From: a plasmid
Length of the DNA: 64,000 nucleotides
Direction: 5' to 3' (one strand)
NCBI RefSeq assembly: GCF_054482525.1
Contig: NZ_JBTHVG010000003.1
Both the position numbers and the translations under genes were made by a program. Shown here piece by piece: positions 9,249-48,087 of this stretch; position 1 is the first letter of the stretch; each line of letters starts with the position of its first letter. Under the pieces are notes generated by a model. It searched no databases, had not been told where the DNA came from, and saw only the letters and a program-made list of their open reading frames with translations.

Positions 9249-9507
9249 TGAAGCCTCGTCTCAGCGATAACGCTTGAAATAGCCCGCTTTGGTCATCATG
9301 AAATTAGCCATCTGACTGGCGATTTGATTGTATCTTACTCATAGTGCCCTACCTATAGGTTAAAAAGGGGCATTTTCGCTTTATAGCGTGTTCAGCAGCA
9401 TCAATCCTCCCAAGAAAGGCTGGCTTATTAAGCCGGTCCATCATTTTCTGTATATCTCTCATCAATTTTTATATCCGCCCTGGAGTGCACCGTTCAAGCA
9501 CACCGAT

Positions 9508-9536
9508 TAGGCAGATAGTCACTAGTTAACTCTTTA
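9508..9536. promoter_or_regulatory. perfect 10-bp-arm inverted repeat (candidate operator)
   Basis: AGTCACTAGT-N9-ACTAGTGACT in the AT-rich region upstream of the 9879 operon. Confidence 0.35.
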
Positions 9537-9784
9537 CTAGTGACTAAATTCCATTGATATACGTGACAACGTCACGTCATGAAAGCTTATAAATGCCTAT
9601 TTTTCATACAATGGGATTTAATTAGGAGTAAATCCCATAGGCTTACATAAGGATGACAATTAAAAGCGTTAAATATCAACCAGATAGAATGATTACCCCC
9701 AATTAATGGGCTCATCACATTATTTCACTGGCTGGGGTTATTGCTGGCATATCTGAAAGTGCTAATATGTTAGTCATTAGTAAT

Positions 9785-27455: not shown

Positions 27456-27664
27456 ATAAGAATATCATCAATAAAATTGAGTGTTGCTCTGTGGATAACT
27501 TGCAGAGTTTATTAAGTATCATTGCAGCAAAGATGAAATCAATGATTTATCAAAAATGATTGAAAGGTGGTTGTAAATAATGTTACAATGTGTGAGAAGC
27601 AGTCTAAATTCTTCGTGAAATAGTGATTTTTGAAGCTAATAAAAAACACACGTGGAATTTAGGG
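27456..27664 (+). mobile_element. ISEcp1 3'-end remnant with right IR, truncated by IS26
   Basis: Ends in ACGTGGAATTTAGGG followed by a ~41-bp spacer before blaCTX-M, the usual ISEcp1 promoter-providing arrangement. Confidence 0.8.
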
Positions 27665-27687
27665 AATACTGATGTAACACGGATTGA

Positions 27688-28581
<894 letters not shown>

Positions 28582-33327: not shown

Positions 33328-33357
33328 ACGCTCAGTGGAACGAAAACTCACGTTAAG
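33320..33357. repeat. Tn2/Tn3 38-bp terminal inverted repeat
   Basis: GGGGTCTGACGCTCAGTGGAACGAAAACTCACGTTAAG. Confidence 0.85.
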
Positions 33358-34655
33358 CAACGTTTTCTGCCTCTGACGCCTCTTTTAATGGTCTCAGATG
33401 TCCTTTGGTCACCAGTTCTGCCAGCGTGAAGGAATAATGGCCGAGCATATTGATATGTCCGTGGCAAAGCGGGGAGAGGCGTGCGATATCTTCATCATTC
33501 AGTGTTTCACCCTGCGCCCGGAGATGATCCAGGGCTGCCTGCATATAAATAGTGTTCCATAACACGACGGCGTTAGTGACCAGCCCCAGTGTGCCCAGTT
33601 GATCTTCCTGACCGTCGGTATATCGTTTTCTTATCTCACCTTTTTGACCGTGACAGATGGCTCTGGCAACGGCATGGCGACTTTCTCCCCGATTAAGCTG
33701 GGTCAGAATGCGCCGGCGGTAATCTTCATCATCAATATAATTAAGCAGATACAGCGTTTTGTTGATGCGCCCCACTTCAATGATTGCCTGAGTCAGTCCG
33801 GAAGGACGTTCACTTTTCAGCAATGAACGGACCAGCACTGAAACCTGTACTTTGCCCAGCTTCAGGGAGCCAGCGGTCCGGATCATTTCGTCCCACTGAA
33901 GGACTATTTTTCGGGGATCTGATTGCCCTCTGGCAATATCATTCAGCACGCCATAGTCGGCATCATGGTCCATTCGCCAGAAAACCGAAGCACCGGCATC
34001 AGCCAGGCGTGGAGAAAACTGGTATCCCAGCAGCCAGAAAAGGCCAAAGACAAGTTCGCTGGCACCTGCTGTATCGGTCATAATTTCGGTTGGATTCAGC
34101 CCGGTCTCCTGTTCCAGAAGACCTTCCAGCACAAAGATAGAGTCCCTCAGCGTCCCCGGTATAACGATGCCATGAAAGCCGGAATACTGATCGGACACAA
34201 AGTTGTACCAGGTGATCCCTCTGTTATTACCAAAGTATTTGCGGTTCGGTCCGGCATTGATTGTTCTGACTGGCGTAACAAAGCGCATTCCATCTGCAGA
34301 TGCCACTTCTCCTCCACCCCATATCTGTGCCAGTGGCAGCGTTGCCTGAAAATCAACCAGTCTGGCATTAGCGCTGGTGATAGTTTCAGCCCGCAGATAG
34401 TTCGCTTTTGTCCAGTTCAGCCGGTGTCGGGTCAGTGCAGGAACATTTGATCTGATCAGTGGTTCCAGACCGATATTGCAGGCTTCAGCCATCAGCACGG
34501 CGCTGATGCTGACGGGCAGATCATCAACTCTGGCACTGGCTTCACTAGCATGGAAAAACTCATCAGCAAATCCGGTATGGGCGTTAATTTCGAGCAGCAA
34601 CTCCGTTAAATCCACCGGAGGGAGTAGATCACTGATCATTTTGCTCAGTCGTTTC
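33353..34655 (-). pseudogene. tnpA: Tn2/Tn3 transposase, 3' fragment truncated by IS26
   Basis: 435-aa ORF with Tn3-type TnpA C-terminal sequence ending at the IR; cut at 34656 by IS26 copy 5. Confidence 0.85.
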
Positions 34656-35475
34656 GGCACTGTTGCAAATAGTCGGTGGTGATAAACTTATCATCCCCTT
34701 TTGCTGATGGAGCTGCACATGAACCCATTCAAAGGCCGGCATTTTCAGCGTGACATCATTCTGTGGGCCGTACGCTGGTACTGCAAATACGGCATCAGTT
34801 ACCGTGAGCTGCAGGAGATGCTGGCTGAACGCGGAGTGAATGTCGATCACTCCACGATTTACCGCTGGGTTCAGCGTTATGCGCCTGAAATGGAAAAACG
34901 GCTGCGCTGGTACTGGCGTAACCCTTCCGATCTTTGCCCGTGGCACATGGATGAAACCTACGTGAAGGTCAATGGCCGCTGGGCGTATCTGTACCGGGCC
35001 GTCGACAGCCGGGGCCGCACTGTCGATTTTTATCTCTCCTCCCGTCGTAACAGCAAAGCTGCATACCGGTTTCTGGGTAAAATCCTCAACAACGTGAAGA
35101 AGTGGCAGATCCCACGATTCATCAACACGGATAAAGCGCCCGCCTATGGTCGCGCGCTTGCTCTGCTCAAACGCGAAGGCCGGTGCCCGTCTGACGTTGA
35201 ACACCGACAGATTAAGTACCGGAACAACGTGATTGAATGCGATCATGGCAAACTGAAACGGATAATCAACGCCACGCTGGGATTTAAATCCATGAAGACG
35301 GCTTACGCCACCATCAAAGGTATTGAGGTGATGCGTGCACTACGCAAAGGCCAGGCCTCAGCATTTTATTATGGTGATCCCCTGGGCGAAATGCGCCTGG
35401 TAAGCAGAGTTTTTGAAATGTAAGGCCTTTGAATAAGACAAAAGGCTGCCTCATCGCTAACTTTGCAACAGTGCC
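34656..35475 (+). mobile_element. tnp26: IS26 copy 5 (Tnp26 G184N variant)
   Basis: 820 bp; Tnp26 coding 34719-35423; RIINATLGF instead of RIIGATLGF, plus one silent change. Confidence 0.95.
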
Positions 35476-35625
35476 GCCCCAGCAGCATCTCCAGCTGTGA
35501 ACGCTGTTCGGCTGACGGTATCAGTGCCAGTTTGTTCCACAGGCGCAACGTCGCCTTTTCCCTTACCTCTGAAATCAACCGGGTCAGCGTAGTGGCTCCG
35601 GGGAGAATAATAGTCTATCCCGGCA

Positions 35626-36003
35626 TTGCCAGTCGGGGATATTAAAAAGAGTATAGGTTTTTATTGCGATAAACTAGGTTTCACTTTGGTTCACCATGAA
35701 GATGGATTCGCAGTTCTAATGTGTAATGAGGTTCGGATTCATCTATGGGAGGCAAGTGATGAAGGCTGGCGCTCTCGTAGTAATGATTCACCGGTTTGTA
35801 CAGGTGCGGAGTCGTTTATTGCTGGTACTGCTAGTTGCCGCATTGAAGTAGAGGGAATTGATGAATTATATCAACATATTAAGCCTTTGGGCATTTTGCA
35901 CCCCAATACATCATTAAAAGATCAGTGGTGGGATGAACGAGACTTTGCAGTAATTGATCCCGACAACAATTTGATTAGCTTTTTTCAACAAATAAAAAGC
36001 TAA
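35626..36003 (+). CDS. bleO: bleomycin-binding protein, BleO-like
   Basis: Low-GC ORF matching the pUB110-type BleO sequence as recalled (PVGDIKKSIGFYCDKLGFTLVHHEDGFAVLMCNEVRIHLWEA...); the track starts it at a TTG, so the true N-terminus is uncertain. Confidence 0.75.
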   Translation: MPVGDIKKSIGFYCDKLGFTLVHHEDGFAVLMCNEVRIHLWEASDEGWRSRSNDSPVCTGAESFIAGTASCRIEVEGIDELYQHIKPLGILHPNTSLKDQWWDERDFAVIDPDNNLISFFQQIKS

Positions 36004-36020
36004 AATCTATTATTAATCTG

Positions 36021-36085
36021 TTCAGCAATCGGGCGCGATTGCTGAATAAAAGATACGAGAGACCTCTCTTGTATCTTTTTTATTT
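36021..36085 (+). terminator. tandem hairpins with T-run downstream of bleO
   Basis: TTCAGCAATC-GGGCGC-GATTGCTGAA then AGATACGAGAGA-CC-TCTCTTGTATCT followed by TTTTTTATTTT. Confidence 0.55.
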
Positions 36086-36090
36086 TGAGT

Positions 36091-36185
36091 GGTTTTGTCC
36101 GTTACACTAGAAAACCGAAAGACAATAAAAATTTTATTCTTGCTGAGTCTGGCTTTCGGTAAGCTAGACAAAACGGACAAAATAA
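36091..36185. repeat. long imperfect palindrome in the bleO module
   Basis: TTTTGTCCGTT...CCGAAAGAC...GTCTGGCTTTCGG...AACGGACAAAA, nested inverted repeats over ~95 bp. Confidence 0.4.
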
Positions 36186-36322
36186 AAATCTAAATATGCT
36201 TGAACAACTTGTAACTTAAATTCATAACTGTATTTTGCCATAAAAAATGACCTCCCATAAGTTAGATTTTTGGTCTAACTTATGGGGGTCAGTTCATTCT
36301 ACACTTGGGCTGCATGTTTTGA

Positions 36323-36715
36323 TTAATTATCTAATATCTCCGGATCTCCTGTAAAGGAATATAAAACTGCCTGCATGTTTTTCAAATAAAATACGGTGAA
36401 TTTCCCATCATCAGCGCTATACCAATCTCTCAAAAACGGATTTGCTTCAAGCATTGCTTCCCTTGCTTCCACGGTATCATCAATTACGGCTTCGCCGGTG
36501 AGCCGAATCCATTTTCCTTTTGCCATACCTGAGACTTCCACCTTTGAATTTGCCAATAACTGCTGATAAACTTTTTTCTGATTGGTTGTACCAAGATAGA
36601 CCTTGCCATTCCTCTCCATGGCTGCATTAAACGGTCTGACCCTTGGCTGGTCTCCTTCAACGGTTGCAAAATAAAAAGTTTTTGCTTCATTTAAAAAATC
36701 AACAACTTGACTCAT
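36323..36715 (-). CDS. pyridoxamine 5'-phosphate oxidase-like (split-barrel flavin-binding) protein
   Basis: 130-aa low-GC ORF; family assignment from general resemblance, unverified. Confidence 0.5.
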   Translation of the reverse strand: MSQVVDFLNEAKTFYFATVEGDQPRVRPFNAAMERNGKVYLGTTNQKKVYQQLLANSKVEVSGMAKGKWIRLTGEAVIDDTVEAREAMLEANPFLRDWYSADDGKFTVFYLKNMQAVLYSFTGDPEILDN

Positions 36716-36759
36716 CCTTTTTTACCTCCATAAATAAATTTTTCTTTACTTTTCTTTGA

Positions 36760-36997
36760 CCTAAATTCCACGTGCATTTTTTATTAGCTTAAAAGAACAC
36801 TATTTCACGAAGAATTTAAACTGATACTCCCACATTGTAACATTATTTACCACCACCTTTCAATCTTTTTCAATAAATTATTGATTGCAACTTTTGAGTA
36901 AAGATACTTATTAAACCCTGCAAGTTATCCACAGAGCAACACTCGATTTTCAAGATGATATCTTTATTATACCAGACATTTTTCATACACTTCCTTG
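36760..36997 (-). mobile_element. divergent ISEcp1-like (IS1380 family) 3'-end remnant, truncated by IS26
   Basis: Reverse complement aligns at roughly 85% identity with the ISEcp1 remnant at 27456-27664 and ends in ACGTGGAATTTAGG about 45 bp upstream of the 36715 start codon. Confidence 0.6.
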
Positions 36998-37817
36998 GGC
37001 ACTGTTGCAAAGTTAGCGATGAGGCAGCCTTTTGTCTTATTCAAAGGCCTTACATTTCAAAAACTCTGCTTACCAGGCGCATTTCGCCCAGGGGATCACC
37101 ATAATAAAATGCTGAGGCCTGGCCTTTGCGTAGTGCACGCATCACCTCAATACCTTTGATGGTGGCGTAAGCCGTCTTCATGGATTTAAATCCCAGCGTG
37201 GCGTTGATTATCCGTTTCAGTTTGCCATGATCGCATTCAATCACGTTGTTCCGGTACTTAATCTGTCGGTGTTCAACGTCAGACGGGCACCGGCCTTCGC
37301 GTTTGAGCAGAGCAAGCGCGCGACCATAGGCGGGCGCTTTATCCGTGTTGATGAATCGTGGGATCTGCCACTTCTTCACGTTGTTGAGGATTTTACCCAG
37401 AAACCGGTATGCAGCTTTGCTGTTACGACGGGAGGAGAGATAAAAATCGACAGTGCGGCCCCGGCTGTCGACGGCCCGGTACAGATACGCCCAGCGGCCA
37501 TTGACCTTCACGTAGGTTTCATCCATGTGCCACGGGCAAAGATCGGAAGGGTTACGCCAGTACCAGCGCAGCCGTTTTTCCATTTCAGGCGCATAACGCT
37601 GAACCCAGCGGTAAATCGTGGAGTGATCGACATTCACTCCGCGTTCAGCCAGCATCTCCTGCAGCTCACGGTAACTGATGCCGTATTTGCAGTACCAGCG
37701 TACGGCCCACAGAATGATGTCACGCTGAAAATGCCGGCCTTTGAATGGGTTCATGTGCAGCTCCATCAGCAAAAGGGGATGATAAGTTTATCACCACCGA
37801 CTATTTGCAACAGTGCC
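36998..37817 (-). mobile_element. tnp26: IS26 copy 6 (Tnp26 G184N variant)
   Basis: 820 bp; Tnp26 coding 37050-37754 on minus strand; Asn184. Confidence 0.95.
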
Positions 37818-38073
37818 AGTTTTATTGTTACATTTAAATCCACGCCGGGATCGCGGTTTTTTATCCCCCCCCTGGACCGCACATAAAGTGCAACAATTAT
37901 TCTTGCACTTAGTTAAGCGCCTTCCTACAATCGCCGCGATAGTGTATTCGAAATTGTTACAGTTTTGTGGCGATGATCGACACAAATGGCCTTAAGCCAG
38001 CCCGGACAAAGGAAGTGGCGCGGCTTCTCACGCTGCGTCTTGCCCGGCGGCTACATTTACCGGAATAAAAATA

Positions 38074-39249
38074 ATGAGCCTGCAAAAAACCTGGGGAAAC
38101 ATTCACCTGACCGCGCTCGGCGCGATGATGCTCTCCTTTCTGCTCGTCGGCTGCGACGACAGCGTCGCACAGAATGCTGCGCCTCCCGCCCCGACGGTCA
38201 GCGCCGCTAAGGTGCTGGTGAAGTCGATCAGTCAGTGGGATAGTTTTAACGGTCGCATTGAAGCGGTGGAGAGCGTTCAGCTTCGCCCTCGCGTCTCGGG
38301 ATACATTGATAAAGTGAATTACACTGACGGCCAGGAGGTGAAAAAGGGCCAGGTGCTGTTCACGATAGATGACAGAACCTATCGCGCCGCGCTGGAGCAG
38401 GCGCAGGCGGCGTTGGCAAGAGCCAAAACGCAGGCCAGCCTCGCGCAAAGCGAGGCGAACCGCACCGATAAATTAGTCCATACCAACCTCGTCTCCCGTG
38501 AAGAGTGGGAGCAGCGCCGGTCAGCCGCGGTTCAGGCGCAGGCCGACGTTCGCGCCGCGCAGGCGGCGGTGGATGCCGCGCAGCTTAACCTCGACTTCAC
38601 CAAAGTGACCGCCCCTATTGACGGCCGCGCCAGCCGGGCGCTGATCACCAGCGGTAACCTGGTCACCGCGGGCGACACCGCCAGCGTGCTCACCACCCTG
38701 GTCTCGCAAAAGACGGTGTACGTCTACTTTGACGTCGACGAGTCAACCTACCTCCACTATCAAAACCTCGCCCGCCGCGGGCAAGGCGCGTCCAGCGATA
38801 ATCAGGCGCTCCCGGTGGAGATTGGCCTGGTGGGCGAGGAGGGTTACCCCCACCAGGGCAAAGTGGATTTTCTCGATAATCAGTTAACGCCGAGTACCGG
38901 CACCATCCGCATGCGTGCGCTGCTGGATAACTCGCAGCGTCTGTTCACGCCGGGGCTGTTTGCCCGCGTGCGTCTGCCGGGCAGCGCAGAGTTCAAAGCC
39001 ACGCTGATCGACGACAAAGCGGTACTGACCGATCAGGATCGTAAATACGTCTATATCGTTGATAAAGATGGTAAAGCACAGCGCCGCGACATTACCCCAG
39101 GGCGGCTGGCAGACGGTTTACGCATCGTTCAGAAGGGGTTGAATCCTGGGGATAGCGTCATCGTCGACGGCTTACAAAAAGTGTTTATGCCGGGTATGCC
39201 GGTTAACGCCAAAACCGTTGCCATGACCTCCAGCGCCACCCTTAACTGA
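38074..39249 (+). CDS. oqxA: RND efflux periplasmic adaptor OqxA
   Basis: 391-aa ORF with lipoprotein signal (LLVGC) and membrane-fusion-protein sequence matching OqxA as recalled. Confidence 0.95.
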   Translation: MSLQKTWGNIHLTALGAMMLSFLLVGCDDSVAQNAAPPAPTVSAAKVLVKSISQWDSFNGRIEAVESVQLRPRVSGYIDKVNYTDGQEVKKGQVLFTIDDRTYRAALEQAQAALARAKTQASLAQSEANRTDKLVHTNLVSREEWEQRRSAAVQAQADVRAAQAAVDAAQLNLDFTKVTAPIDGRASRALITSGNLVTAGDTASVLTTLVSQKTVYVYFDVDESTYLHYQNLARRGQGASSDNQALPVEIGLVGEEGYPHQGKVDFLDNQLTPSTGTIRMRALLDNSQRLFTPGLFARVRLPGSAEFKATLIDDKAVLTDQDRKYVYIVDKDGKAQRRDITPGRLADGLRIVQKGLNPGDSVIVDGLQKVFMPGMPVNAKTVAMTSSATLN

Positions 39250-39272
39250 TCCCTAATCAGAGAATCCAAGAC

Positions 39273-42200
39273 ATGGACTTTTCCCGCTTTTTTATCGACA
39301 GGCCGATTTTCGCCGCGGTGCTGTCGATTTTAATTTTTATCACCGGGTTAATCGCTATCCCACTGCTGCCGGTGAGCGAATATCCGGATGTCGTCCCGCC
39401 GAGCGTCCAGGTGCGCGCGGAGTATCCCGGCGCCAACCCGAAAGTGATTGCCGAGACCGTGGCGACGCCGCTGGAGGAAGCGATCAACGGCGTTGAAAAC
39501 ATGATGTACATGAAATCGGTCGCCGGCTCCGACGGCGTGCTGGTCACCACCGTCACCTTCCGCCCGGGTACCGACCCGGATCAGGCGCAGGTTCAGGTGC
39601 AGAACCGCGTCGCGCAGGCCGAAGCGCGTCTGCCGGAGGATGTACGCCGTCTGGGGATCACCACCCAGAAGCAGTCTCCGACGCTGACCCTGGTGGTGCA
39701 TCTGTTCTCCCCCGGCGGGAAGTACGACTCGCTGTATATGCGCAACTACGCCACGCTGAAAGTGAAGGATGAGCTGGCGCGCCTGCCCGGCGTCGGCCAG
39801 ATCCAGATTTTTGGCTCCGGTGAATATGCGATGCGCGTCTGGCTGGATCCCAATAAGGTCGCTGCCCGCGGTCTGACGGCCTCGGATGTGGTGACGGCGA
39901 TGCAGGAGCAAAACGTCCAGGTGTCTGCCGGACAGCTTGGCGCCGAGCCGCTGCCGCAGGAGAGCGATTTCCTGATCTCCATTAACGCCCAGGGCCGTCT
40001 GCATACCGAAGAAGAGTTTGGCAATATCATTCTGAAAACGGCGCAGGATGGCTCGCTGGTCCGCCTGCGCGACGTGGCGCGCATCGAGATGGGTTCCGGT
40101 AGCTATGCGCTGCGCTCCCAGCTCAACAATAAGGATGCGGTCGGGATCGGTATCTTCCAGTCACCCGGCGCTAACGCCATCGATCTGTCGAACGCGGTAC
40201 GCGCCAAAATGGCCGAGCTGGCCACCCGCTTCCCGGAAGATATGCAATGGGCGGCGCCGTACGACCCGACGGTTTTCGTCCGCGACTCCATCCGCGCGGT
40301 GGTGCAGACGCTGCTGGAGGCGGTAGTGCTGGTGGTGCTGGTAGTGATCCTGTTCCTGCAGACCTGGCGCGCGTCGATTATCCCGTTGATCGCTGTGCCG
40401 GTATCGGTGGTGGGTACCTTCAGCATTCTCTATCTGCTGGGCTTCTCGCTGAATACCCTGAGCCTGTTCGGGCTGGTACTGGCTATCGGTATCGTGGTGG
40501 ACGACGCCATCGTGGTGGTGGAGAACGTCGAGCGTAATATCGAAGAGGGGCTTGCGCCGCTTGCCGCGGCGTATCAGGCGATGCGTGAGGTCTCCGGGCC
40601 GATTATCGCCATTGCGCTGGTGCTGTGTGCGGTGTTCGTGCCGATGGCGTTTCTCTCCGGGGTCACCGGCCAGTTCTACAAACAGTTCGCGGTGACCATC
40701 GCCATCTCGACGGTGATCTCGGCCATCAACTCGCTGACGCTCTCCCCGGCGCTGGCGGCCCTGCTGTTAAAGCCGCACGGCGCGAAGAAAGACCTCCCTA
40801 CCCGGCTGATCGATCGCCTGTTTGGCTGGATTTTCCGTCCGTTTAACCGCTTTTTCCTGCGCAGCTCGAACGGCTATCAGGGACTGGTAGGCAAAACGCT
40901 TGGACGCCGTGGCGCAGTGTTTGCGGTGTACCTGCTGCTGCTCTGCGCCGCTGGGGTGATGTTTAAAGTCGTCCCCGGCGGGTTTATTCCCACCCAGGAT
41001 AAGCTGTATCTCATTGGCGGCGTGAAGATGCCGGAAGGGTCGTCGCTGGCGCGCACCGACGCGGTGATCCGCAAAATGAGCGAGATCGGGATGAATACCG
41101 AAGGGGTCGACTATGCGGTCGCTTTCCCGGGGCTTAACGCGCTGCAGTTCACCAACACGCCGAATACCGGGACGATCTTTTTTGGCCTGAAACCGTTCGA
41201 CCAGCGCAAACACACGGCGGCGGAAATTAACGCGGAGATCAACGCCAAAATCGCGCAAATCCAGCAGGGCTTTGGCTTTTCCATCCTGCCGCCGCCGATT
41301 TTAGGTCTGGGTCAGGGTTCCGGCTACTCCCTGTACATCCAGGATCGCGGAGGGCTGGGCTATGGCGCGCTGCAAAGCGCGGTGAATGCGATGTCCGGGG
41401 CGATTATGCAGACGCCGGGGATGCACTTCCCGATCTCGACTTACCAGGCTAACGTGCCGCAGCTGGACGTGCAGGTCGATCGCGATAAGGCGAAAGCGCA
41501 GGGGGTATCGCTAACCGATCTGTTCGGTACGCTGCAGACCTATCTCGGCTCGTCTTATGTCAATGACTTTAACCAGTTCGGGCGTACCTGGCGCGTGATG
41601 GCCCAGGCTGACGGACCATACCGCGAGAGCGTGGAAGATATCGCCAATCTGCGCACCCGCAATAATCAGGGCGAAATGGTACCGATCGGCAGTATGGTGA
41701 ATATCAGTACCACCTACGGGCCGGATCCGGTGATCCGCTACAACGGTTATCCGGCGGCGGACCTGATTGGCGATGCCGATCCGCGGGTCCTCTCTTCTTC
41801 GCAGGCGATGACGCATCTGGAAGAGCTGTCGAAGCAGATCCTGCCGAATGGGATGAATATTGAGTGGACGGATCTCAGCTTCCAGCAGGCCACCCAGGGC
41901 AACACGGCGCTGATCGTCTTCCCGGTGGCGGTGCTGCTGGCATTCCTCGTACTGGCCGCGCTGTATGAAAGCTGGACCCTGCCGCTGGCGGTGATCCTTA
42001 TCGTACCGATGACGATGCTCTCCGCGCTGTTTGGCGTCTGGCTGACCGGGGGCGATAACAACGTCTTCGTGCAGGTGGGTCTGGTGGTCCTGATGGGCCT
42101 GGCCTGTAAAAACGCCATTCTGATCGTCGAGTTTGCCCGCGAGCTGGAGATCCAGGGGAAAGGCATCATGGAAGCGGCGCTGGAGGCATGCCGCCTGCGT

Positions 42201-42425
42201 CTGCGCCCGATCGTGATGACCTCCATCGCCTTTATCGCCGGGACCATTCCGCTGATCCTCGGCCACGGCGCGGGGGCGGAAGTCCGCGGCGTCACCGGGA
42301 TCACGGTGTTCTCCGGGATGCTGGGCGTGACGCTCTTCGGTCTGTTCCTGACGCCGGTGTTTTACGTGACGCTACGGAAACTGGTGACCCGCAGGAAGCC
42401 GGTCCAGGAGGATCTGCCCGCCTAG
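39273..42425 (+). CDS. oqxB: RND efflux transporter OqxB
   Basis: 1050-aa ORF, 12-TM RND permease, 23 bp downstream of oqxA. Confidence 0.95.
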   Translation: MDFSRFFIDRPIFAAVLSILIFITGLIAIPLLPVSEYPDVVPPSVQVRAEYPGANPKVIAETVATPLEEAINGVENMMYMKSVAGSDGVLVTTVTFRPGTDPDQAQVQVQNRVAQAEARLPEDVRRLGITTQKQSPTLTLVVHLFSPGGKYDSLYMRNYATLKVKDELARLPGVGQIQIFGSGEYAMRVWLDPNKVAARGLTASDVVTAMQEQNVQVSAGQLGAEPLPQESDFLISINAQGRLHTEEEFGNIILKTAQDGSLVRLRDVARIEMGSGSYALRSQLNNKDAVGIGIFQSPGANAIDLSNAVRAKMAELATRFPEDMQWAAPYDPTVFVRDSIRAVVQTLLEAVVLVVLVVILFLQTWRASIIPLIAVPVSVVGTFSILYLLGFSLNTLSLFGLVLAIGIVVDDAIVVVENVERNIEEGLAPLAAAYQAMREVSGPIIAIALVLCAVFVPMAFLSGVTGQFYKQFAVTIAISTVISAINSLTLSPALAALLLKPHGAKKDLPTRLIDRLFGWIFRPFNRFFLRSSNGYQGLVGKTLGRRGAVFAVYLLLLCAAGVMFKVVPGGFIPTQDKLYLIGGVKMPEGSSLARTDAVIRKMSEIGMNTEGVDYAVAFPGLNALQFTNTPNTGTIFFGLKPFDQRKHTAAEINAEINAKIAQIQQGFGFSILPPPILGLGQGSGYSLYIQDRGGLGYGALQSAVNAMSGAIMQTPGMHFPISTYQANVPQLDVQVDRDKAKAQGVSLTDLFGTLQTYLGSSYVNDFNQFGRTWRVMAQADGPYRESVEDIANLRTRNNQGEMVPIGSMVNISTTYGPDPVIRYNGYPAADLIGDADPRVLSSSQAMTHLEELSKQILPNGMNIEWTDLSFQQATQGNTALIVFPVAVLLAFLVLAALYESWTLPLAVILIVPMTMLSALFGVWLTGGDNNVFVQVGLVVLMGLACKNAILIVEFARELEIQGKGIMEAALEACRLRLRPIVMTSIAFIAGTIPLILGHGAGAEVRGVTGITVFSGMLGVTLFGLFLTPVFYVTLRKLVTRRKPVQEDLPA

Positions 42426-42440
42426 CCTGCAGCAGATAAC

Positions 42441-42478
42441 AAAAAAACCGCCTTCACAATTTGAAGGCGGTTTTTTTT
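42441..42478. terminator. bidirectional rho-independent terminator
   Basis: A-run, AACCGCCTTCA-CAATT-TGAAGGCGGTT hairpin, T-run; lies between convergent oqxB and oqxR. Confidence 0.7.
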
Positions 42479-42494
42479 CGTCACCAGAAAATGA

Positions 42495-43023
42495 TTAATG
42501 CGCTTTTTTAAAGCGGGCGATCATTTCCGGCACCGGGTCGCAGCCGCTGGTATCGGCGTTTTTGACCGCCTCCAGCGCGCTGGCCACGGTATGGCGAGCG
42601 AGGACGTTTAACGAAGCCTGCTCTGCTTCATCGGCAACCGATTTGAAGTACCAGCAGGCGTTGGCGCTGACCACGCAGCGGGCCGGGACGTCAGGACGCG
42701 ACGCCCACAGTTTTTTATCTTCGATAACCGAAAGATAGATATCACGCAGGGTGATCTTGTCCGCCGGACGGCCAAGATGAATTGAGCCGTTGCGACCAAG
42801 CGTGGAGACGATAATGCCGTCACGAGTTAGCGGAACCATTAGTTTACGGATAAAGCTCGGGTTCGCTTCCAGGCCGTAGGCCAGAATCGCACTCGTCGAA
42901 CGTTCACCCATCTGCTCCGCCATTGCTACGCTGAGAACCATCTGCAAAGCTGTCGGGAAGCGGTAATCTAACATGGCAGTGTCCTGGGTTGCGGTGAATC
43001 TTGTTCTTTTTAGCACCGCAGAG
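42495..43023 (-). CDS. oqxR: Rrf2-family repressor OqxR, N-terminus replaced at the IS26 junction
   Basis: Rrf2-like sequence from LDYRFPTALQMVLSVA onward; the in-frame N-terminus MNKTKGCLIANFATVP is encoded inside IS26 copy 7. Confidence 0.65.
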
Positions 43024-43843
43024 GGCACTGTTGCAAAGTTAGCGATGAGGCAGCCTTTTGTCTTATTCAAAGGCCTTACATTTCAAAAACTCTGCTTACC
43101 AGGCGCATTTCGCCCAGGGGATCACCATAATAAAATGCTGAGGCCTGGCCTTTGCGTAGTGCACGCATCACCTCAATACCTTTGATGGTGGCGTAAGCCG
43201 TCTTCATGGATTTAAATCCCAGCGTGGCGTTGATTATCCGTTTCAGTTTGCCATGATCGCATTCAATCACGTTGTTCCGGTACTTAATCTGTCGGTGTTC
43301 AACGTCAGACGGGCACCGGCCTTCGCGTTTGAGCAGAGCAAGCGCGCGACCATAGGCGGGCGCTTTATCCGTGTTGATGAATCGTGGGATCTGCCACTTC
43401 TTCACGTTGTTGAGGATTTTACCCAGAAACCGGTATGCAGCTTTGCTGTTACGACGGGAGGAGAGATAAAAATCGACAGTGCGGCCCCGGCTGTCGACGG
43501 CCCGGTACAGATACGCCCAGCGGCCATTGACCTTCACGTAGGTTTCATCCATGTGCCACGGGCAAAGATCGGAAGGGTTACGCCAGTACCAGCGCAGCCG
43601 TTTTTCCATTTCAGGCGCATAACGCTGAACCCAGCGGTAAATCGTGGAGTGATCGACATTCACTCCGCGTTCAGCCAGCATCTCCTGCAGCTCACGGTAA
43701 CTGATGCCGTATTTGCAGTACCAGCGTACGGCCCACAGAATGATGTCACGCTGAAAATGCCGGCCTTTGAATGGGTTCATGTGCAGCTCCATCAGCAAAA
43801 GGGGATGATAAGTTTATCACCACCGACTATTTGCAACAGTGCC
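43024..43843 (-). mobile_element. tnp26: IS26 copy 7 (Tnp26 G184N variant)
   Basis: 820 bp; Tnp26 coding 43076-43780 on minus strand; Asn184; direct orientation with copy 6 around oqxAB. Confidence 0.95.
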
Positions 43844-43990
43844 ACGCAAAGACGTAATGAGCAGTGTATCCCCTGCCACAATACCCTCTTCAGGGATGCT
43901 GTCAGTGGACGTCCAGTACTGACCCGCCAGCAAAGAATGAAATCGCTCTAAACGGTCAATGCTATTTTTGCTGACCAGGTCACCCATATA
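43844..43990 (-). pseudogene. backbone gene 5' fragment truncated by IS26
   Basis: Hand translation from ATG near 43990: MGDLVSKNSIDRLERFHSLLAGQYWTSTDSIPEEGIVAGDTLLITSLR, running into IS26 copy 7. Confidence 0.3.
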
Positions 43991-44237
43991 CTTTTCCTTC
44001 CAGATTCGTGTGTTAGGTGAATCATACCAGATTGCCCTTGCCGTCTAATAACGCAGAAAACTGTGAATCCAAAATTCCTTAAATTCAAACCTGTCCAATA
44101 TAAAAGATGGCTCTTTTTCTTATCCAGTGTTAAGCGATAATGCTCAATTTTATTTCATTATTGTCAGAATCAAAATAATCTGAAAATAAAAAAGGCTTCA
44201 GAATTGAAGCCTCTATATTATACAACGTGAATGTATT

Positions 44238-44594
44238 TTATTTATCTTTCACCGGGTTCATTTCCCAGTATCTTTCACGTACGTTTTCTTGGCAATGGTC
44301 CGCTCGCTCCGGCGTGTCCCTTTTACGAGTAGCAAATGCTTCAATTACGGCATTCAAGTCTTTTTCTTTGATTTTAGATCCAACAGGCAAGTTTTCTTCA
44401 AACTCAGTCCTTACCAGTTCTTTCGTTTTTTTATAATCGGTTTCACTTTGGATTTCAGGTTTTAAACAAATATCGGCAACCATCACATCTGATTTGCCCG
44501 GGATCGGTTTTTTCCCGTTTTCAGATGCAAGGACCGCAGAGGAGGTAAAGGCGACAGACAGAGTTGCACATAACAGAAGGTATTTTAATTTCAT
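44238..44594 (-). CDS. secreted hypothetical protein
   Basis: 118-aa ORF with signal peptide (MKLKYLLLCATLSVAFTSSAVLA). Confidence 0.45.
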   Translation of the reverse strand: MKLKYLLLCATLSVAFTSSAVLASENGKKPIPGKSDVMVADICLKPEIQSETDYKKTKELVRTEFEENLPVGSKIKEKDLNAVIEAFATRKRDTPERADHCQENVRERYWEMNPVKDK

Positions 44595-44743
44595 GACTCA
44601 CTCCATGATTATCAATGATGGTTGCTCAGACACATCATTTATACCATGCCTGTCACCGAATACGAGATCCCCATATTTTGGCTTTAAATATTATCCAATA
44701 GGGTTTCATACACCTGGCTTCTGAAAGCAAGGTTCAAGGAGCT

Positions 44744-45361
44744 TCAGGGGGAAATCAGATTGTTGTCGACCCAGTACTTGTGCAAACCTACCACCCAATT
44801 CCTGGAAATGGACGAAAGTTCATGCGCCAGTTCACGACAGCATTCAGGCGTAAAAATACGTATGGGTCCTGAAGTACCGATATCAACAGACATGATAAAC
44901 TCCAGAATGTTGCCATGGCATAGGTTGTTTCTCAGCCTGACAATTTCTGCTTCAGGTGTTCTCCCGGCTGCTACCTTAACCAACATATCCTGCTCGGCTG
45001 GAAATGAAAGTAATTCTACCGGCACCCCTTCCTGCTTGGCCTTTCTCAGTAAGGCATTACTCATTACGGAGATACCCTCCAAGTCCACCAGCTCAGGAGC
45101 TGCATGCTGATCGTTAACTGTTGGTTTCAGCATCAGCGACTTCAACGTAACCATGAGTGATGTTTCAATCCCGTTCAGGAAGCTCGTACAGGCCGGTATC
45201 CATAGTTCGTGATGCAACGCCTCGGTTGCTTGTTTAAAGAACCAGTCAATCACGGGGACAGTGTGATAATCATAATAGTGATTTATCTCGCTGAATCTTG
45301 ACATATAAGCATCGTACTCAGCCTGGTCTTCAGGAGATAAAAAATTTGGTGGGAGGGGCAT
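44744..45361 (-). CDS. hypothetical protein
   Basis: 205-aa ORF; no family recognised. Confidence 0.45.
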   Translation of the reverse strand: MPLPPNFLSPEDQAEYDAYMSRFSEINHYYDYHTVPVIDWFFKQATEALHHELWIPACTSFLNGIETSLMVTLKSLMLKPTVNDQHAAPELVDLEGISVMSNALLRKAKQEGVPVELLSFPAEQDMLVKVAAGRTPEAEIVRLRNNLCHGNILEFIMSVDIGTSGPIRIFTPECCRELAHELSSISRNWVVGLHKYWVDNNLISP

Positions 45362-45515
45362 CAGAATCCTTTCATCCTAGCTTGTATACCTTCTTCGTAG
45401 GCCAGCTCGCCATTATCGGTAAAAGATGGTTTTTGGTGTTTGTGACAAAGCTTAATTTTTCGTCAGGCTCGATAGCGTTACCGGAGAGATTTGATCTTTT
45501 CTCTGTAACTCGCAA

Positions 45516-45535
45516 TACTGTTTATACATACAGTA
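45516..45535. promoter_or_regulatory. LexA (SOS) box
   Basis: TACTGTTTATACATACAGTA, a close match to the TACTG-N10-CAGTA consensus, 20 bp upstream of the umuD-like start. Confidence 0.65.
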
Positions 45536-45554
45536 TGAGAATTCGAGTGTAGCT

Positions 45555-45989
45555 ATGTCTGTTATCCTTGAGCACATTAGCAACAAGCCTTACGAAATGG
45601 CACCTTTTTTCAGTGATTTACTGAGCTGTGGAGTGATGAGTCCGTGCGCCGGGCATGAAGATAATGAATTAAATTTGCATGAATATGTAGTCCGTAACCG
45701 CCCCTCAACCTTCTTTGTCAGGGCGGCGGGCCTCAGTATGATCAATGCCGGTATCAATGATGGCGCTATTCTGGTTGTGGATCGGTCTTTAACGGCACGA
45801 CACGGCTCTATCGTCGTTGCGCTGGTGGATGGAGAGTTCACGGTAAAGATCTTACACACGTATCCTGAGCTGCTTTTGATGCCTTCTAATCCAGCCTATA
45901 AGCCGATACGTGTAAATCCCGAATCCCTTGAGATATGGGGCGTCGTCACCTTTGCACTGAATCAGTTTAGCCATGTACATGCACGTTGA
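45555..45989 (+). CDS. umuD: UmuD/MucA-like self-cleaving accessory subunit of error-prone polymerase
   Basis: 144-aa ORF with LexA-like S24 peptidase features (cleavage-site-like CG, Ser/Lys dyad region). Confidence 0.8.
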   Translation: MSVILEHISNKPYEMAPFFSDLLSCGVMSPCAGHEDNELNLHEYVVRNRPSTFFVRAAGLSMINAGINDGAILVVDRSLTARHGSIVVALVDGEFTVKILHTYPELLLMPSNPAYKPIRVNPESLEIWGVVTFALNQFSHVHAR

Positions 45990-47232
45990 TATTAACGGGG
46001 CCTATGCGGCATTTGAGTGTGCGATGGATCCCAAGCTGGCAAAAAAGCCGCTCATCATAGCCAGCAATAACGATTCGTCCGTCATTGCAATGAATAAACT
46101 GGCTAAAAGCGTTGGTATTAAGCGTGGGACCCCAATTTTTAAGTGCAGGGATTTGATTCAGCAACACCAGATCGAAGTCCGGAGCTCTAACTTTACTTTG
46201 TATGAAGACTACTCAAATCGCTTCCATGAAACGCTGGAAAGCTTCGCGCCTCAATCGAGTCGATATAGCATAGATGAAAATTTCATGTTATTGAAAAACA
46301 TGAACAAGATAATAGATTATGAAGATTACGGCCGGTTGATCAGAAGTACACTTCTTCATAATCTGTCCCTTACCTGTGGTGTGGGGTGTTCAAGCACCAA
46401 AACCCTGGCTAAATTATGCACCTATGCGAGCAAACGATGGGCAGCTACAGGCGGGGTTGTAGTTTTGACTGATCAGGCCAGGATCAGGAAGCTCCTGGGC
46501 CTTATCAGTACCAGAGAAATATGGGGTATTGGTCAAAAGATCAGTGAACGCCTGTCGGCTTTCGGGATCATCACTGCCGGTGATTTTTATAATAGCGACG
46601 TTCGCTTTTTACGTAAAAGCTTTGGCGTTGAAATCGAGCGTACCTGGCGGGAACTGCATGGCGAACCATGTTTCCGGCTGCATGAATCCCCTCCTGTCCG
46701 GCAACAGATTATCGTTTCCAGAAGTTTTGGTCAGCGCCTTAATGAGATAGGCAAGCTACATGAGGCAGTTTCATTTTTTACCGCCCGGGCGGCAGAGCAG
46801 CTGCGCAAGGATGGCTCGTGGACCCGTCAAATCACAGTCTTCATTCAGAGCAGCAATTATGCGCAAGGTGAAAACCGCTACAGCAATTGTGGTATCGAGC
46901 CGCTTACCGCTACACAGGACACCCGCGATCTGGTTGATGCAGCCATGACCATCCTGAACCGCATTTACAAACCCGGGATAGCGTATGCGAAAGCTGGGGT
47001 AATGCTCTCCGCTATGACTGACGGCACAGAGCAACTCAGCCTGTTTGATGAGCGCCCGGCCAGGCCTGGCAGTCAGGCACTGATGAAAGTTATGGACCGG
47101 TTCAATAAAGAAAAGCGCGGAGCTCTGTTTTTGCTGGGGGAAGGCATTCAACAGGATTTTCGTATGAAACAGGCCATGCTATCACCGAGATATACGACCC
47201 GCTGGGATGAATTACTCGTTGTAAAAGCGTAG
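45973..47232 (+). CDS. umuC: UmuC/MucB-like Y-family DNA polymerase
   Basis: 419-aa ORF overlapping the umuD stop; N-terminus VDINGAYAAFE resembles the UmuC palm start; true start may be ATG at 45979. Confidence 0.85.
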   Translation: MYMHVDINGAYAAFECAMDPKLAKKPLIIASNNDSSVIAMNKLAKSVGIKRGTPIFKCRDLIQQHQIEVRSSNFTLYEDYSNRFHETLESFAPQSSRYSIDENFMLLKNMNKIIDYEDYGRLIRSTLLHNLSLTCGVGCSSTKTLAKLCTYASKRWAATGGVVVLTDQARIRKLLGLISTREIWGIGQKISERLSAFGIITAGDFYNSDVRFLRKSFGVEIERTWRELHGEPCFRLHESPPVRQQIIVSRSFGQRLNEIGKLHEAVSFFTARAAEQLRKDGSWTRQITVFIQSSNYAQGENRYSNCGIEPLTATQDTRDLVDAAMTILNRIYKPGIAYAKAGVMLSAMTDGTEQLSLFDERPARPGSQALMKVMDRFNKEKRGALFLLGEGIQQDFRMKQAMLSPRYTTRWDELLVVKA

Positions 47233-47277
47233 CGGCCATGACCGGCATGGCCGTACTCATCAAAAGTGAAAGTAACT

Positions 47278-48087
47278 TTAGGCCCCGCGAGCTTTTTCGA
47301 TTGCGCCCTGCAAAGTTGCTGCGTCCATAGCCCCGGGGATAAATGTGGTAGTCGCCGCATTCGGCTTTTTCATATTCATAATGATGAAGCCGGGTGTGCC
47401 GGTGATCCCAAGCGCTTCGCCCAGCTGCATGTTGCCGGAGATCACGTTTTCATATCGGTTTTTTTCCCTGTCAGAAAACGTGCTGTTAAACCCTGACTTA
47501 TCCACCACAGTATTAAAGTCGCTGAGTTCGAATTTGCGTTGAGAGGTCATGAAGGTATGAGCCACAGCCATCAGGTTGTTGTGGTATTTACGATAGGCTT
47601 CAGCACCGAAATTCTGATAGACGTGCAGACCCGTAGCGGCCCCCATGGCAGATACAGGTTTTGAACCGGCAAAAATCGGGAATTCTTTAAAGAAGAATTT
47701 TACATCTTTGCTCTGATTCATTACCGATTCAACAACAGGTGTAACCCGCATGCAGTAAATACACTGATAGTCGAAGAACTCGATTACCGCGACGTCGGCG
47801 TCATCCGGGCCGATGTTTGGCGTCTCCTTGGTATCCAGCAGAGCTGGCGCATATGGAATTATTCGTTCCACTGAGGCACTTACGTTCTGATTTTCCAGCG
47901 CCTTACCTGCTTCCACTAAATAATGGGGATTTTTTACCAGGTAAGTAGCGGCAATTTTGCCAATTTCTTCCTCACTGAGCACCTTCGGTTTAAAATAAGT
48001 TGCCGCGATTAACGCCGAGGCAGCGGTAGCAATTACCGCAGAAATTAAAATCGTGGCCATCGGTTTTAAATAAAATTCTTTAGACAT
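47278..48087 (-). CDS. DsbA-like thiol:disulfide oxidoreductase
   Basis: 269-aa ORF with N-terminal membrane anchor and thioredoxin-fold CIYC active site. Confidence 0.7.
   Translation of the reverse strand: MSKEFYLKPMATILISAVIATAASALIAATYFKPKVLSEEEIGKIAATYLVKNPHYLVEAGKALENQNVSASVERIIPYAPALLDTKETPNIGPDDADVAVIEFFDYQCIYCMRVTPVVESVMNQSKDVKFFFKEFPIFAGSKPVSAMGAATGLHVYQNFGAEAYRKYHNNLMAVAHTFMTSQRKFELSDFNTVVDKSGFNSTFSDREKNRYENVISGNMQLGEALGITGTPGFIIMNMKKPNAATTTFIPGAMDAATLQGAIEKARGA

Follow-up and report, generated by a model that had tools for sequence, protein, structure and literature searches.

The 1,522-bp segment between two IS26 copies at positions 35476–36997 of the window (the whole analysed stretch of plasmid DNA, 64,000 nucleotides long) very probably consists of the right-hand 1,385 bp of a 2,802-bp ISEnca1 transposition unit and 137 bp of its Tn2 target, assembled through the history reconstructed below. 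The block as such is already known: annotations of it in resistance plasmids go back to pOLA52. Positions 33353–39300 of the window share 99.95% identity with positions 41931–47878 of that plasmid (three mismatches in 5,948 bp), and the pOLA52 region ΔTn2-IS26-ΔTn2-blmS(bleO)-orf63(nimC)-ΔISEnca1-Tn6010(oqxAB) is the same DNA without any structural difference. In the literature, the order is given as Tn6010-ΔISEnca1-orf63-blmS-ΔTn2 and the remnant is labelled ΔISEnca1 (PMC5645526, PMC6288184, PMC7823714). The excerpts of pOLA52-type annotations contain no mention of a TATTA-flanked unit, of a pUB110 origin, of the 5′ truncation of bleO or of an IS3 orfA scrap. The TATTA-flanked unit, the pUB110 origin and clipping of bleO, and the orfA scrap are refinements of the published annotation.

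Identity of the insertion sequence remnant

The remnant occupies positions 36760–36997 on the minus strand and represents the right-hand 238 bp of a 1,655-bp element of the IS1380 family. It opens with the last ten tnpA codons and the stop codon (36997–36967, minus strand; C-terminus KEVYEKCLV*), so that the transposase frame ends 31 nt into the remnant, and it closes with the right inverted repeat (IRR) ACGTGGAATTTAGG at 36773–36760 on the minus strand. This repeat sequence occurs exactly twice in the window, the other occurrence being at 27650–27663 on the plus strand. The first-pass annotation had noticed an IRR-like sequence upstream of a pyridoxamine-phosphate-oxidase-like (PNPOx) gene and had estimated about 85% identity to the ISEcp1 remnant in front of blaCTX-M. 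Both observations hold: the repeat is an exact ISEcp1-type IRR, and a MAFFT alignment of 36760–36967 with 27456–27663 is gapless with 179 of 208 positions identical (86.1%). Over all 238 bp, the identity to full ISEcp1 is 87.4%.

The remnant might be taken for a diverged or mutated copy of ISEcp1, or for a chance resemblance of AT-rich sequences, with no second element involved: the IRR and the promoter hexamers are identical to those of ISEcp1, and the identity of 87% extends across 238 bp. This reading is ruled out, with practically no probability left to it, by a separate lineage that the 238 bp match at 99–99.6% in 25 contigs representing different species, mostly Bacillota, in which the homology stops exactly at the IRR. 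The full-length copies of this lineage are 1,655 bp long and uniformly about 91% (91.0–91.3%) identical to ISEcp1 over 1,653 bp. Their left inverted repeat (IRL) is a different one, CTGAGATTCTACGT, which departs from the ISEcp1 IRL CCTAGATTCTACGT at 2 of 14 positions, and PGAP gives the transposase another name, ISEnca1 family. The TnpA of a full-length relative shares 95% identity with the TnpA of ISEcp1, and the full-length relative in the metagenome locus L043, which is over 99% identical to the remnant, reaches 319.6 bits on the IS1380 model NF033539 (cut-off 180). The usual ISfinder limit for isoforms of one insertion sequence is about 95% nucleotide identity. At about 91% (86–87% over the retained end), the element therefore falls outside ISEcp1 proper.

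On sequence grounds, we assign the remnant to the right end of ISEnca1, a name that follows PGAP and the published papers. ISEnca1 is distinct from ISEcp1 but its close sister, and belongs to the IS1380-family elements found in low-GC Gram-positive bacteria. The insertion sequence at this junction is known and annotated, but it is a close relative of ISEcp1. The earlier proposal was that the module had been mobilised by such a relative from the IS1380 family, in the geometry by which ISEcp1 captures and drives genes; it is supported by the identity of the element together with the TATTA duplication, the empty site and the conserved promoter sequence described below. In all five complete stand-alone genomic copies that were checked, a 5-bp duplication directly outside the inverted repeats is absent. 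The PNPOx gene was found downstream of the element in none of the 25 Bacillota loci, so that the original capture site is not revealed by them.

The transposition unit in Tn2 and its assembly

The left end of the segment (35476–35612, minus strand) was mapped onto intact tnpA of Tn2/Tn3 and corresponds to nt 604 to 468 of this gene; thousands of plasmids have Tn3-family transposase genes that match it at 100%. Its last five nucleotides (35608–35612, TAATA on the plus strand, that is TATTA on the minus strand) are the right-hand copy of the target-site duplication. The Salmonella plasmid CP082383.2 keeps the whole ISEnca1 element. In this plasmid, a unit of 2,802 bp, composed of the insertion sequence, the PNPOx gene, 18 codons of an IS3-type orfA and 577 bp of pUB110-type DNA, lies inside Tn2 tnpA with the 5-bp duplication TATTA at both sides and thus encloses ISEnca1 and 1,147 bp of foreign DNA. 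Nucleotides 1–472 of tnpA adjoin the IRL and nucleotides 468–604 follow the end of ΔbleO, nt 468–472 (TATTA) being doubled. The reconstructed empty site matches intact Tn2 at 105 of 105 positions and is found at 100% identity in more than 4,200 plasmids. Such a duplication and empty site characterise one-ended transposition units of the ISEcp1 type. At the right end of the unit, the 14 bp ATGCCGGGATAGAC agree with the IRR at 4 of 14 positions, which is the modal chance score, and neither this end nor the joint between ΔIS3 and pUB110 DNA (6/14), the two ends scored, has a recognisable surrogate IRR. The case for a transposition unit therefore rests on the target-site duplication and the empty site.

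Both edges of the segment are formed by IS26. The left border is copy 5 (34656–35475, plus strand, 820 bp), which has GGCACTGTTGCAAA terminal repeats at both ends and encodes Tnp26 of 240 aa at 34701–35423 on the plus strand. Copy 6 (36998–37817, minus strand, 820 bp, also with terminal repeats; Tnp26 ORF at 37050–37772, minus strand) cuts off ISEnca1 and doubles as the left-hand IS26 copy of Tn6010, the oqxAB transposon. Copy 5 has no flanking 8-bp duplication and adjoins Tn2 tnpA nt 604 on one side and approximately nt 1697 on the other, from which it follows that about 1.09 kb of tnpA has been deleted. In CP082383.2, an IS26 is located at the same position as copy 6 with an 8-bp duplication, CAAGGAAG, and beyond it lies the remainder of ISEnca1. 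The complementary left half of the unit is present in NZ_CP030182.1.

Seven IS26 copies are present in the region, two of them flank the segment, and both truncations at its edges are clearly due to IS26. It is therefore conceivable that IS26 alone built the module, that its successive insertions and deletions threw together bleO, the PNPOx gene and the IS fragment as unrelated pieces, and that the ISEcp1-like end had no role in their movement. This is very improbable. The internal junctions at 35612/3 and 36188/9 contain neither IS26 nor an IS26 scar, and the block in CP082383.2 precisely interrupts Tn2 tnpA, from the IRL to ΔbleO, with a 5-bp duplication; IS26 generates duplications of 8 bp and does not make such joints. 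In addition, copies 5 and 6 are mutually inverted and lack the direct orientation of a translocatable unit or pseudo-compound transposon, and are hence unable to form a translocatable unit.

The joint at 36188/9 brings together two sources. On its left side lies pUB110/pTB19-type plasmid DNA (35613–36189, plus strand, 577 bp), which comprises ΔbleO, the bleO terminator and a part of the bleO–mobV intergenic region and is 100% identical to positions 9078–9655 of Geobacillus pTB19 (NC_025008). Past 36189, pTB19 runs on with TGGCAAGGG towards mobV. On the other side are the first 18 codons of an IS3-type orfA (MAKYSYEFKLQVVQAYLD; 36188–36241, minus strand), which are cut where the pUB110 DNA begins; the AT at 36188–36189 is common to both sources. 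Six metagenome loci (L043–L048) carry orfA onward, to 189 aa in L043, and depart from the window exactly at the joint. Against the IS3 transposase model, the ORF scores weakly (48.8 bits, cut-off 160), with the match confined to the N-terminal part. L043 combines an intact ISEnca1-type element with an identical 44-bp spacer and the PNPOx gene at 98.6% nucleotide identity. A search of L045 for the inverted repeats of the IS3-type element, as markers of what originally lay 3′ of the PNPOx gene, gave no convincing pair.

The likeliest route to this joint is an earlier ISEnca1 transposition unit. We give somewhat less than an even chance to the alternative that illegitimate or microhomology recombination, or an IS3-associated deletion, created it in the Gram-positive donor. 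The 2-bp AT overlap and the position of the joint inside another mobile element, the IS3 orfA, would fit such an event, and the putative surrogate IRR CAAGCATATTTAGA matches the IRR at only 6 of 14 positions, a score within the top 12% of background 14-mers and thus equalled by 12% of them. However, a contiguous ATTTAG in it matches the terminal core of the IRR, nested and ever longer units with variable end-points are a documented habit of ISEcp1-type elements (PMC9330008), and the same insertion sequence demonstrably made such a jump at the next step. The ΔIS3-pUB110 joint alone has no match in the JGI metagenome contigs, and a donor that joins an intact bleO 5′ end to this joint has no match in these contigs and is absent from PLSDB.

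The block very probably arose in five steps, the joint most likely by way of the earlier ISEnca1 unit. ISEnca1, like ISEcp1, is able to bypass its own right inverted repeat and to take along the adjoining DNA. In the first step, in a Bacillota host, the element was located 44 bp upstream of the PNPOx gene, followed by the IS3-type element, which is the arrangement seen in L043. In the second, ISEnca1, the PNPOx gene and the 18 orfA codons became linked to pUB110-type plasmid DNA at a point between mobV and the terminator of bleO; the joint itself can be read in the window. The third step was a renewed transposition of ISEnca1 with an end-point 13 nt inside bleO, which carried the 2,802-bp unit into nt 468–472 of Tn2 tnpA. 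The landing in Tn2 tnpA with the TATTA duplication is observed directly. In the fourth step, IS26 inserted 31 nt before the stop codon of ISEnca1 tnpA and duplicated CAAGGAAG, as is evident in CP082383.2. In the last step, IS26-mediated rearrangements removed the left 1,417 bp of the insertion sequence and 1.09 kb of Tn2 tnpA. The outcome, likewise evident from the sequences, is the block beside oqxAB, as in pOLA52.

The genes carried by the unit

The segment contains two convergent reading frames, ΔbleO (35626–36003, plus strand) and the PNPOx gene (36323–36715, minus strand), in agreement with the arrangement given in the first-pass annotation. The description of the segment as low-GC DNA is correct for the whole (38.4%, compared with 52.1% for IS26) and does not extend to its first 137 bp, which are the Tn2 tnpA fragment. 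The Tn2 origin of this fragment and the 5′ truncation of bleO had been missed.

ΔbleO comprises 125 codons from the first in-frame TTG. Its product reaches 297.9 bits on the NCBIfam model NF000027 (cut-off 275) and covers model positions 10–134 of 134. The first 13 nt of bleO (GTG AGA ATG TTA C), its ribosome-binding site and its promoter have been replaced by Tn2 DNA that ends in the in-frame stop codons TAA TAG: pTB19 reads GTG AGA ATG TTA CAG TCT where the window reads GAA TAA TAG TCT. The gene is therefore incomplete, being devoid of its start codon and expression signals. A terminator-like hairpin of pUB110 origin follows at 36048–36079 on the plus strand (14-bp stem, then a T run). Relative to the pUB110/pTB19 aadD-bleO region, bleO codons 5–134 and the terminator are retained, while aadD, the bleO promoter, the ribosome-binding site, the start codons and the replicon are missing here; the pUB110 fragment is probably only the DNA between two end-points of ISEnca1 units. 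Brought in at the far end of the unit in reverse orientation, and lacking start codon, ribosome-binding site and promoter, ΔbleO is, judged from its sequence context, probably passenger debris of doubtful expression. The "bleO" reported at 100% identity by AMR callers in hundreds of IncHI2, IncX1 and IncF plasmids is this 5′-clipped gene, and with the native expression signals gone, prediction of bleomycin resistance from such a call is unsafe.

The PNPOx gene encodes a 130-aa FMN-binding split-barrel protein of the PNPOx family. The spacer between the IRR and its ATG (36716–36759, minus strand; TCAAAGAAAAGTAAAGAAAAATTTATTTATGGAGGTAAAAAAGG) contains a GGAGG ribosome-binding site; it measures 44 bp, close to the earlier estimate of about 45 bp, against 42 bp for blaCTX-M, and in L043 the identical spacer stands downstream of the intact insertion sequence. 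Within the remnant, a putative outward sigma-70-type promoter (36863–36834, minus strand) consists of TTGAAA, 18 nt and TACAAT with an extended −10 TG and matches the consensus at 10 of 12 positions. Its hexamers and spacing are the same as in the published ISEcp1 promoter, TTGAAA-18N-TACAAT (PMC9330008). This retained ISEcp1-type promoter most likely transcribes the PNPOx gene, and a terminator-like hairpin, also present in L045, is located 3′ of the gene (36254–36286, minus strand; 13-bp stem, then a T run).

The gene is called orf63 or nimC/nimA in the literature (nimC/nimA with blmS in PMC5501952 and PMC6387526). Its product matches Pfam PF01243 (E 1.4e-9) and the PDB entry 2IG6 (E 3.9e-36, sequence search), and its AlphaFold model (pLDDT 95.9) superposes on 2IG6 with TM scores of 0.92–0.94 at 49% sequence identity. 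This is the only close structure, an unassayed structural-genomics entry; a genuine NimA structure was found neither in the sequence search at E ≤ 10 nor among the top 50 fold matches. No curated model reached its cut-off in the NCBIfam search, and the nearest diverged homologues, with 69–78% identity, are from Clostridia. The nimC/nimA label has no experimental or curated-model backing. It is quite unlikely that the flavoprotein would be a real trait, expressed from the ISEnca1 promoter, that alters susceptibility to reductively activated veterinary drugs. The candidate drugs under such a reading are the quinoxaline-di-N-oxides olaquindox and carbadox, nitroimidazoles and nitrofurans. Such a trait, if real, would account for the lasting attachment of the block to oqxAB in livestock-associated plasmids since pOLA52.

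Distribution and significance

At least 385 plasmids in PLSDB carry the block with 100% conservation, as do 146 of the 5,426 complete E. coli genomes. This conservation, the intact PNPOx frame with its strong predicted promoter, and the names blmS and nimC/nimA given to the genes in papers (PMC5501952, PMC6387526) could suggest that the block is maintained as a working two-gene resistance cassette (bleomycin through BleO, nitroimidazole through Nim) and not as a hitch-hiker of oqxAB. Three independent truncations of the insertion sequence (q1, q81 and q88) all leave the promoter (q135–164) intact, which adds little, as this is expected by chance with a probability of about 0.18. We consider the cassette unlikely. 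Recent spread with oqxAB and IS26 explains the 100% identity equally well, bleO has in-frame stop codons upstream in place of its start codons, ribosome-binding site and promoter, and the PNPOx protein stays below every curated NCBIfam cut-off, has the unassayed 2IG6 as its only close structure and recovers no genuine NimA at E ≤ 10 or among the top 50 fold matches. Moreover, the copy in Enterococcus carries a frameshift. The copies from Enterococcus faecalis (P0101, L011–L013) were also considered as the ancestral Gram-positive form and rejected: at the same cut, L013 still has 37 bp of an IS26 end, and it shares the Tn2/pUB110 joint, which shows that these copies derive from the enterobacterial block.

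The closest parallel is the ISEcp1-blaCTX-M unit, a copy of which is present in the window at 27456–28580. The two share the IS1380 family, the identical 14-bp IRR, the identical promoter sequence, a short spacer to the ATG of the cargo and the one-ended transposition of flanking DNA with a 5-bp duplication, and both are commonly left as a remnant of about 200 bp that was cut by IS26 and retains the promoter. They differ in the element, with about 91% nucleotide and 95% TnpA identity, a different IRL and a Bacillota reservoir for ISEnca1, and in the cargo, which here is a flavoprotein and plasmid debris, not a proven resistance gene. Gram-positive-type cargo in Gram-negative hosts is also known from Tn7409 (ISEnca1-optrA) of Aliarcobacter and Campylobacter (PMC9535334), which belongs to the same element family and differs in cargo and structure. 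The three ISEnca1-family copies in the Aliarcobacter plasmid NZ_CP099557.1 are only 95.5% identical to the element here, and the Aliarcobacter copies have the ISEcp1-type IRL CCTAGATTCTACGT (PMC9535334) in place of CTGAGATTCTACGT.

For annotation, the remnant is to be named ΔISEnca1 and not divergent ISEcp1. The block is a clean case of an ISEcp1-type element moving Gram-positive DNA into a Gram-negative transposon, and the closest relative of ISEcp1 is common in Clostridia and Lachnospiraceae; neither point upsets the current understanding. ISEnca1 may have acted as a direct relay in two steps, leaving a clostridial chromosome for a pUB110-type plasmid and moving on from there to Tn2 in Enterobacterales. 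Such a relay, if true, would suggest that the ISEcp1 lineage has its home in Bacillota of the gut.

The mosaic segment between two IS26 copies

IS26 is present in seven 820-bp copies in the window. The copies at 34656-35475 and 36998-37817 are mutually inverted and enclose a segment of 1,522 bp with a GC content of 38.4%, compared with 52.1% for IS26. Judged from its sequence, this segment is a four-part mosaic. It consists of nt 604 to 468 of the Tn2/Tn3 tnpA gene (35476-35612), pUB110-type DNA which is 100% identical to plasmid pTB19 (35613-36189), a stretch with the PNPOx gene (36190-36759) and the insertion sequence remnant ΔISEnca1 (36760-36997, minus strand). The BleO ORF (35626-36003, plus strand; NCBIfam bleO, 297.9 bits) and the PNPOx ORF (36323-36715, minus strand; 130 aa, Pfam PNPOx_N at E 1.4e-9) face each other. 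The IS26 copy at 34656-35475 has no 8-bp duplication and links tnpA nt 604 with nt ~1697 (region 33353-35612). The loss of the intervening ~1.09 kb of tnpA, nt 605 to ~1696, is an IS26-adjacent deletion.

The window contains just two copies of the ISEcp1 right inverted repeat (IRR), ACGTGGAATTTAGG, one before blaCTX-M (27650-27663) and the other in the remnant (36773-36760, minus strand). A gap-free alignment of the two IS remnants gives 86.1% identity (179/208), and the full 238 bp is 87.4% identical to ISEcp1. The spacer between the IRR and the ATG is 44 bp for the PNPOx gene versus 42 bp for blaCTX-M. The first-pass annotation, which had reported a lower-GC segment with convergent BleO-like and PNPOx-like genes, about 85% identity to the ISEcp1 remnant before blaCTX-M, an IRR-like sequence and a spacer of about 45 bp, was thus borne out in every particular.

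The tnpA frame stops 31 nt into the remnant. The promoter-like TTGAAA-18-TG-TACAAT is retained at 36863-36834 and is identical to the promoter characterised in ISEcp1, TTGAAA-18-TACAAT (PMC9330008); the retained ISEnca1 promoter is likely to transcribe the PNPOx gene. A wrong-frame ORF of 46 aa runs across the junction of IS26 and ΔISEnca1 (36870-37010, minus strand); dozens of public "hypothetical proteins" of 30-70 aa are this artefactual ORF or its ISEcp1 equivalent. Elsewhere, ΔISEnca1 has been cut independently by unrelated sequences at remnant positions 81 and 88 (locus L014, 633/634; L045-L047, metagenome contigs, ~70-75; NZ_OP242281.1, 5485-5703). The promoter, at remnant positions 135-164, is kept in all of these further truncations. 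One plasmid carries positions 88-306 alone, that is, the IS end and the first 24 PNPOx codons.

Identity and distribution of ISEnca1

A variant-specific motif was used to scan one genome per prokaryotic species, and 25 contigs matched. Going by their record titles, 21 of these belong to Bacillota (Lachnospiraceae, Oscillospiraceae, Hespellia, Lacrimispora, Eubacterium aggregans, Hathewaya proteolytica with three copies, and Alkalibacterium); the remainder are single contigs from Thermotogae, Acholeplasmataceae, Prevotella and an unclassified MAG. The 238-bp remnant is 99-99.6% identical to the matched contigs, and the homology ends at the IRR. The genes downstream of the IS are different at every site, which indicates that this IS1380-family element is active. 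Complete copies measure 1,655 bp, with the left inverted repeat (IRL) CTGAGATTCTACGT, and are 91.0-91.3% identical to ISEcp1 over the whole length (GC content 33.4% versus 33.2%). The 420-aa transposase scores above the threshold of the IS1380 model, is 95% identical to the ISEcp1 transposase and is labelled by the NCBI pipeline "IS1380-like element ISEnca1 family transposase". The remnant is assigned by this comparison to ISEnca1, a name that rests on the NCBI pipeline annotation and on published papers.

Five complete copies from Bacillota genomes (L017, L019, L020, L025 and L038) all lack a matching 5-bp repeat immediately next to IRL and IRR. They may belong to longer transposition units, or rearrangement may have altered their flanks. 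A left flank ...ATATTA is common to three of the five. In L019 (Oscillospiraceae MAG JAHDPQ010000173.1, 2439-4903), an erm(A) gene (NF012222, 493 bits, cut-off 475) is preceded, at a distance of 78 bp, by a complete ISEnca1-type element. The capture-and-drive geometry of the window recurs there in a gut anaerobe, in front of a genuine resistance gene. Three copies on the Aliarcobacter cryaerophilus plasmid NZ_CP099557.1 (89456-91108), likewise annotated as ISEnca1 family, are 95.5% identical to the window's element and intermediate between it and ISEcp1; their IRL is of the ISEcp1 type (PMC9535334). This suggests that ISEcp1 and ISEnca1 form a graded series rather than two discrete elements.

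The PNPOx gene and its ancestral context

In the metagenome contig L043, a ComEA-like gene is followed by an intact ISEnca1, which is 99.5-99.9% identical to the genomic copies, and then by a 44-bp spacer identical to that of the window, the PNPOx gene (98.6% nt and 95% aa identity to the window) and an IS3-type OrfA-like ORF of 189 aa. By its gene order, this contig represents the upstream, ancestral state of the IS-PNPOx arrangement. The PNPOx and IS3-orfA stretch recurs in five further contigs, in which the IS has been truncated independently. All six metagenome contigs part from the window at 36188/9, after orfA codon 18, which is the exact start of the pUB110 DNA. The PNPOx stop and the orfA ATG are 81 bp apart (L043 2936-3000; window 36242-36322). 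The "terminator" hairpin after the PNPOx gene stops 3 nt short of this ATG and therefore may be part of the left end of the IS3 element and not of the PNPOx gene. The native 3′ context of the gene seems to have been lost wherever the gene was found.

The protein is modelled as an FMN-binding split barrel (pLDDT 95.9), and its nearest diverged homologues are clostridial (69-78%). Some plasmid papers label the gene as a "nimC/nimA resistance gene" (PMC5501952, PMC6387526). This label may still be right but is unsupported. The sole close solved relative, the Clostridium acetobutylicum protein 2IG6 (49% identity, TM 0.92-0.94), comes from structural genomics and bears the title "NimC/NimA family protein" without an assay; no curated NCBIfam model reached its cut-off, and no genuine NimA structure was returned by the sequence search (E ≤ 10) or among the top 50 fold matches.

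Transposition into Tn2 and later events

A single PLSDB record, the Salmonella Bredeney IncHI2 plasmid CP082383.2, covers the complete IS (99.9%). Its order is blaTEM-1, tnpR, tnpA nt 1-472, IRL-ISEnca1 split by IS26, PNPOx, ΔIS3, ΔbleO and tnpA nt 468-604. Tn2 nt 468-472 (TATTA) are present at both ends of the block, which measures 2,802 bp without IS26 and its 8-bp duplication. The rebuilt empty site with one TATTA agrees at 105/105 positions with the uninterrupted Tn2/Tn3 tnpA of over 4,200 plasmids. On sequence grounds, the duplication and the empty site are the signature of an ISEcp1-type transposition unit, and the earlier proposal that an IS1380-family relative of ISEcp1 had mobilised the module is supported. 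IS26 in CP082383.2, with CAAGGAAG on either side, is a simple insertion at the exact point where the window's IS26 meets the remnant. The Tn2|IRL joint is kept in two more Salmonella plasmids and, with 27 bp of the IS, in many others; NZ_CP030182.1 carries the complementary left half alone.

As the metagenome contigs show, ISEnca1 stood beside the PNPOx gene, followed by the IS3-type orfA; an earlier, shorter ISEnca1 unit would then have made the PNPOx-ΔIS3|pUB110 joint. The last hop, into Tn2 with the TATTA duplication, is demonstrated by CP082383.2 and presumably required a pUB110-type replicon and a Tn2-bearing plasmid together in one cell; IS26 insertion into ISEnca1 and losses, both likewise evident from the sequences, followed. 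Candidate surrogate IRRs at the pUB110 joint (6/14) and at the end of the final unit (4/14) are at background, and searches of PLSDB and the JGI metagenomes turned up no donor plasmid.

On the pUB110 side, the joint falls in the interval from the bleO terminator to mobV. The start of bleO in pTB19 reads GTG AGA ATG TTA CAG TCT..., versus ...GAA TAA TAG TCT... in the window. Bleomycin resistance gene bleO therefore lacks 13 nt, and both candidate start codons, the RBS and the promoter are gone; in-frame TAA TAG stops directly precede ΔbleO (35600-35630). AMRFinder reports bleO at "100% identity" in all plasmids with the block, and bleomycin phenotype calls from this clipped gene are doubtful. 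In Enterococcus faecalis GCA_038437115.1 (JARNBA010000004.1, 4780-7890), the PNPOx-ΔbleO block, with a frameshifted PNPOx gene, lies between two IS1216-type elements and adjoins aac(6')-aph(2'') and IS256. It keeps a 37-bp IS26 end at the identical ΔISEnca1 cut and the Tn2/pUB110 joint, and thus appears to be an enterobacterial block that returned to a Gram-positive host.

pOLA52, an IncX1 plasmid from swine manure and the subject of the first oqxAB description, carries the same DNA, with 99.95% identity over 33353-39300. The block is found at 100% identity in at least 385 PLSDB plasmids and is present in 146 of 5,426 complete E. coli genomes. Earlier reports describe "Tn6010-ΔISEnca1-orf63-blmS-ΔTn2-IS26-ΔTn2" as identical in pOLA52, pHXY0908, pHK0653 and pHNSHP45-2 (PMC5645526, PMC6288184), and "ΔTn2-IS26-ble-orf-ΔISEnca1" (PMC7823714). 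Both the element and the module were thus known before. The accessible text of these three papers does not mention the TATTA-flanked unit, the pUB110 origin and truncation of bleO or the IS3 scrap, which may be described in other literature. What is added here is a cleaner reconstruction of the history of the module, together with two cautions for annotation, one on the clipped bleO and one on the unverified "nim" label.
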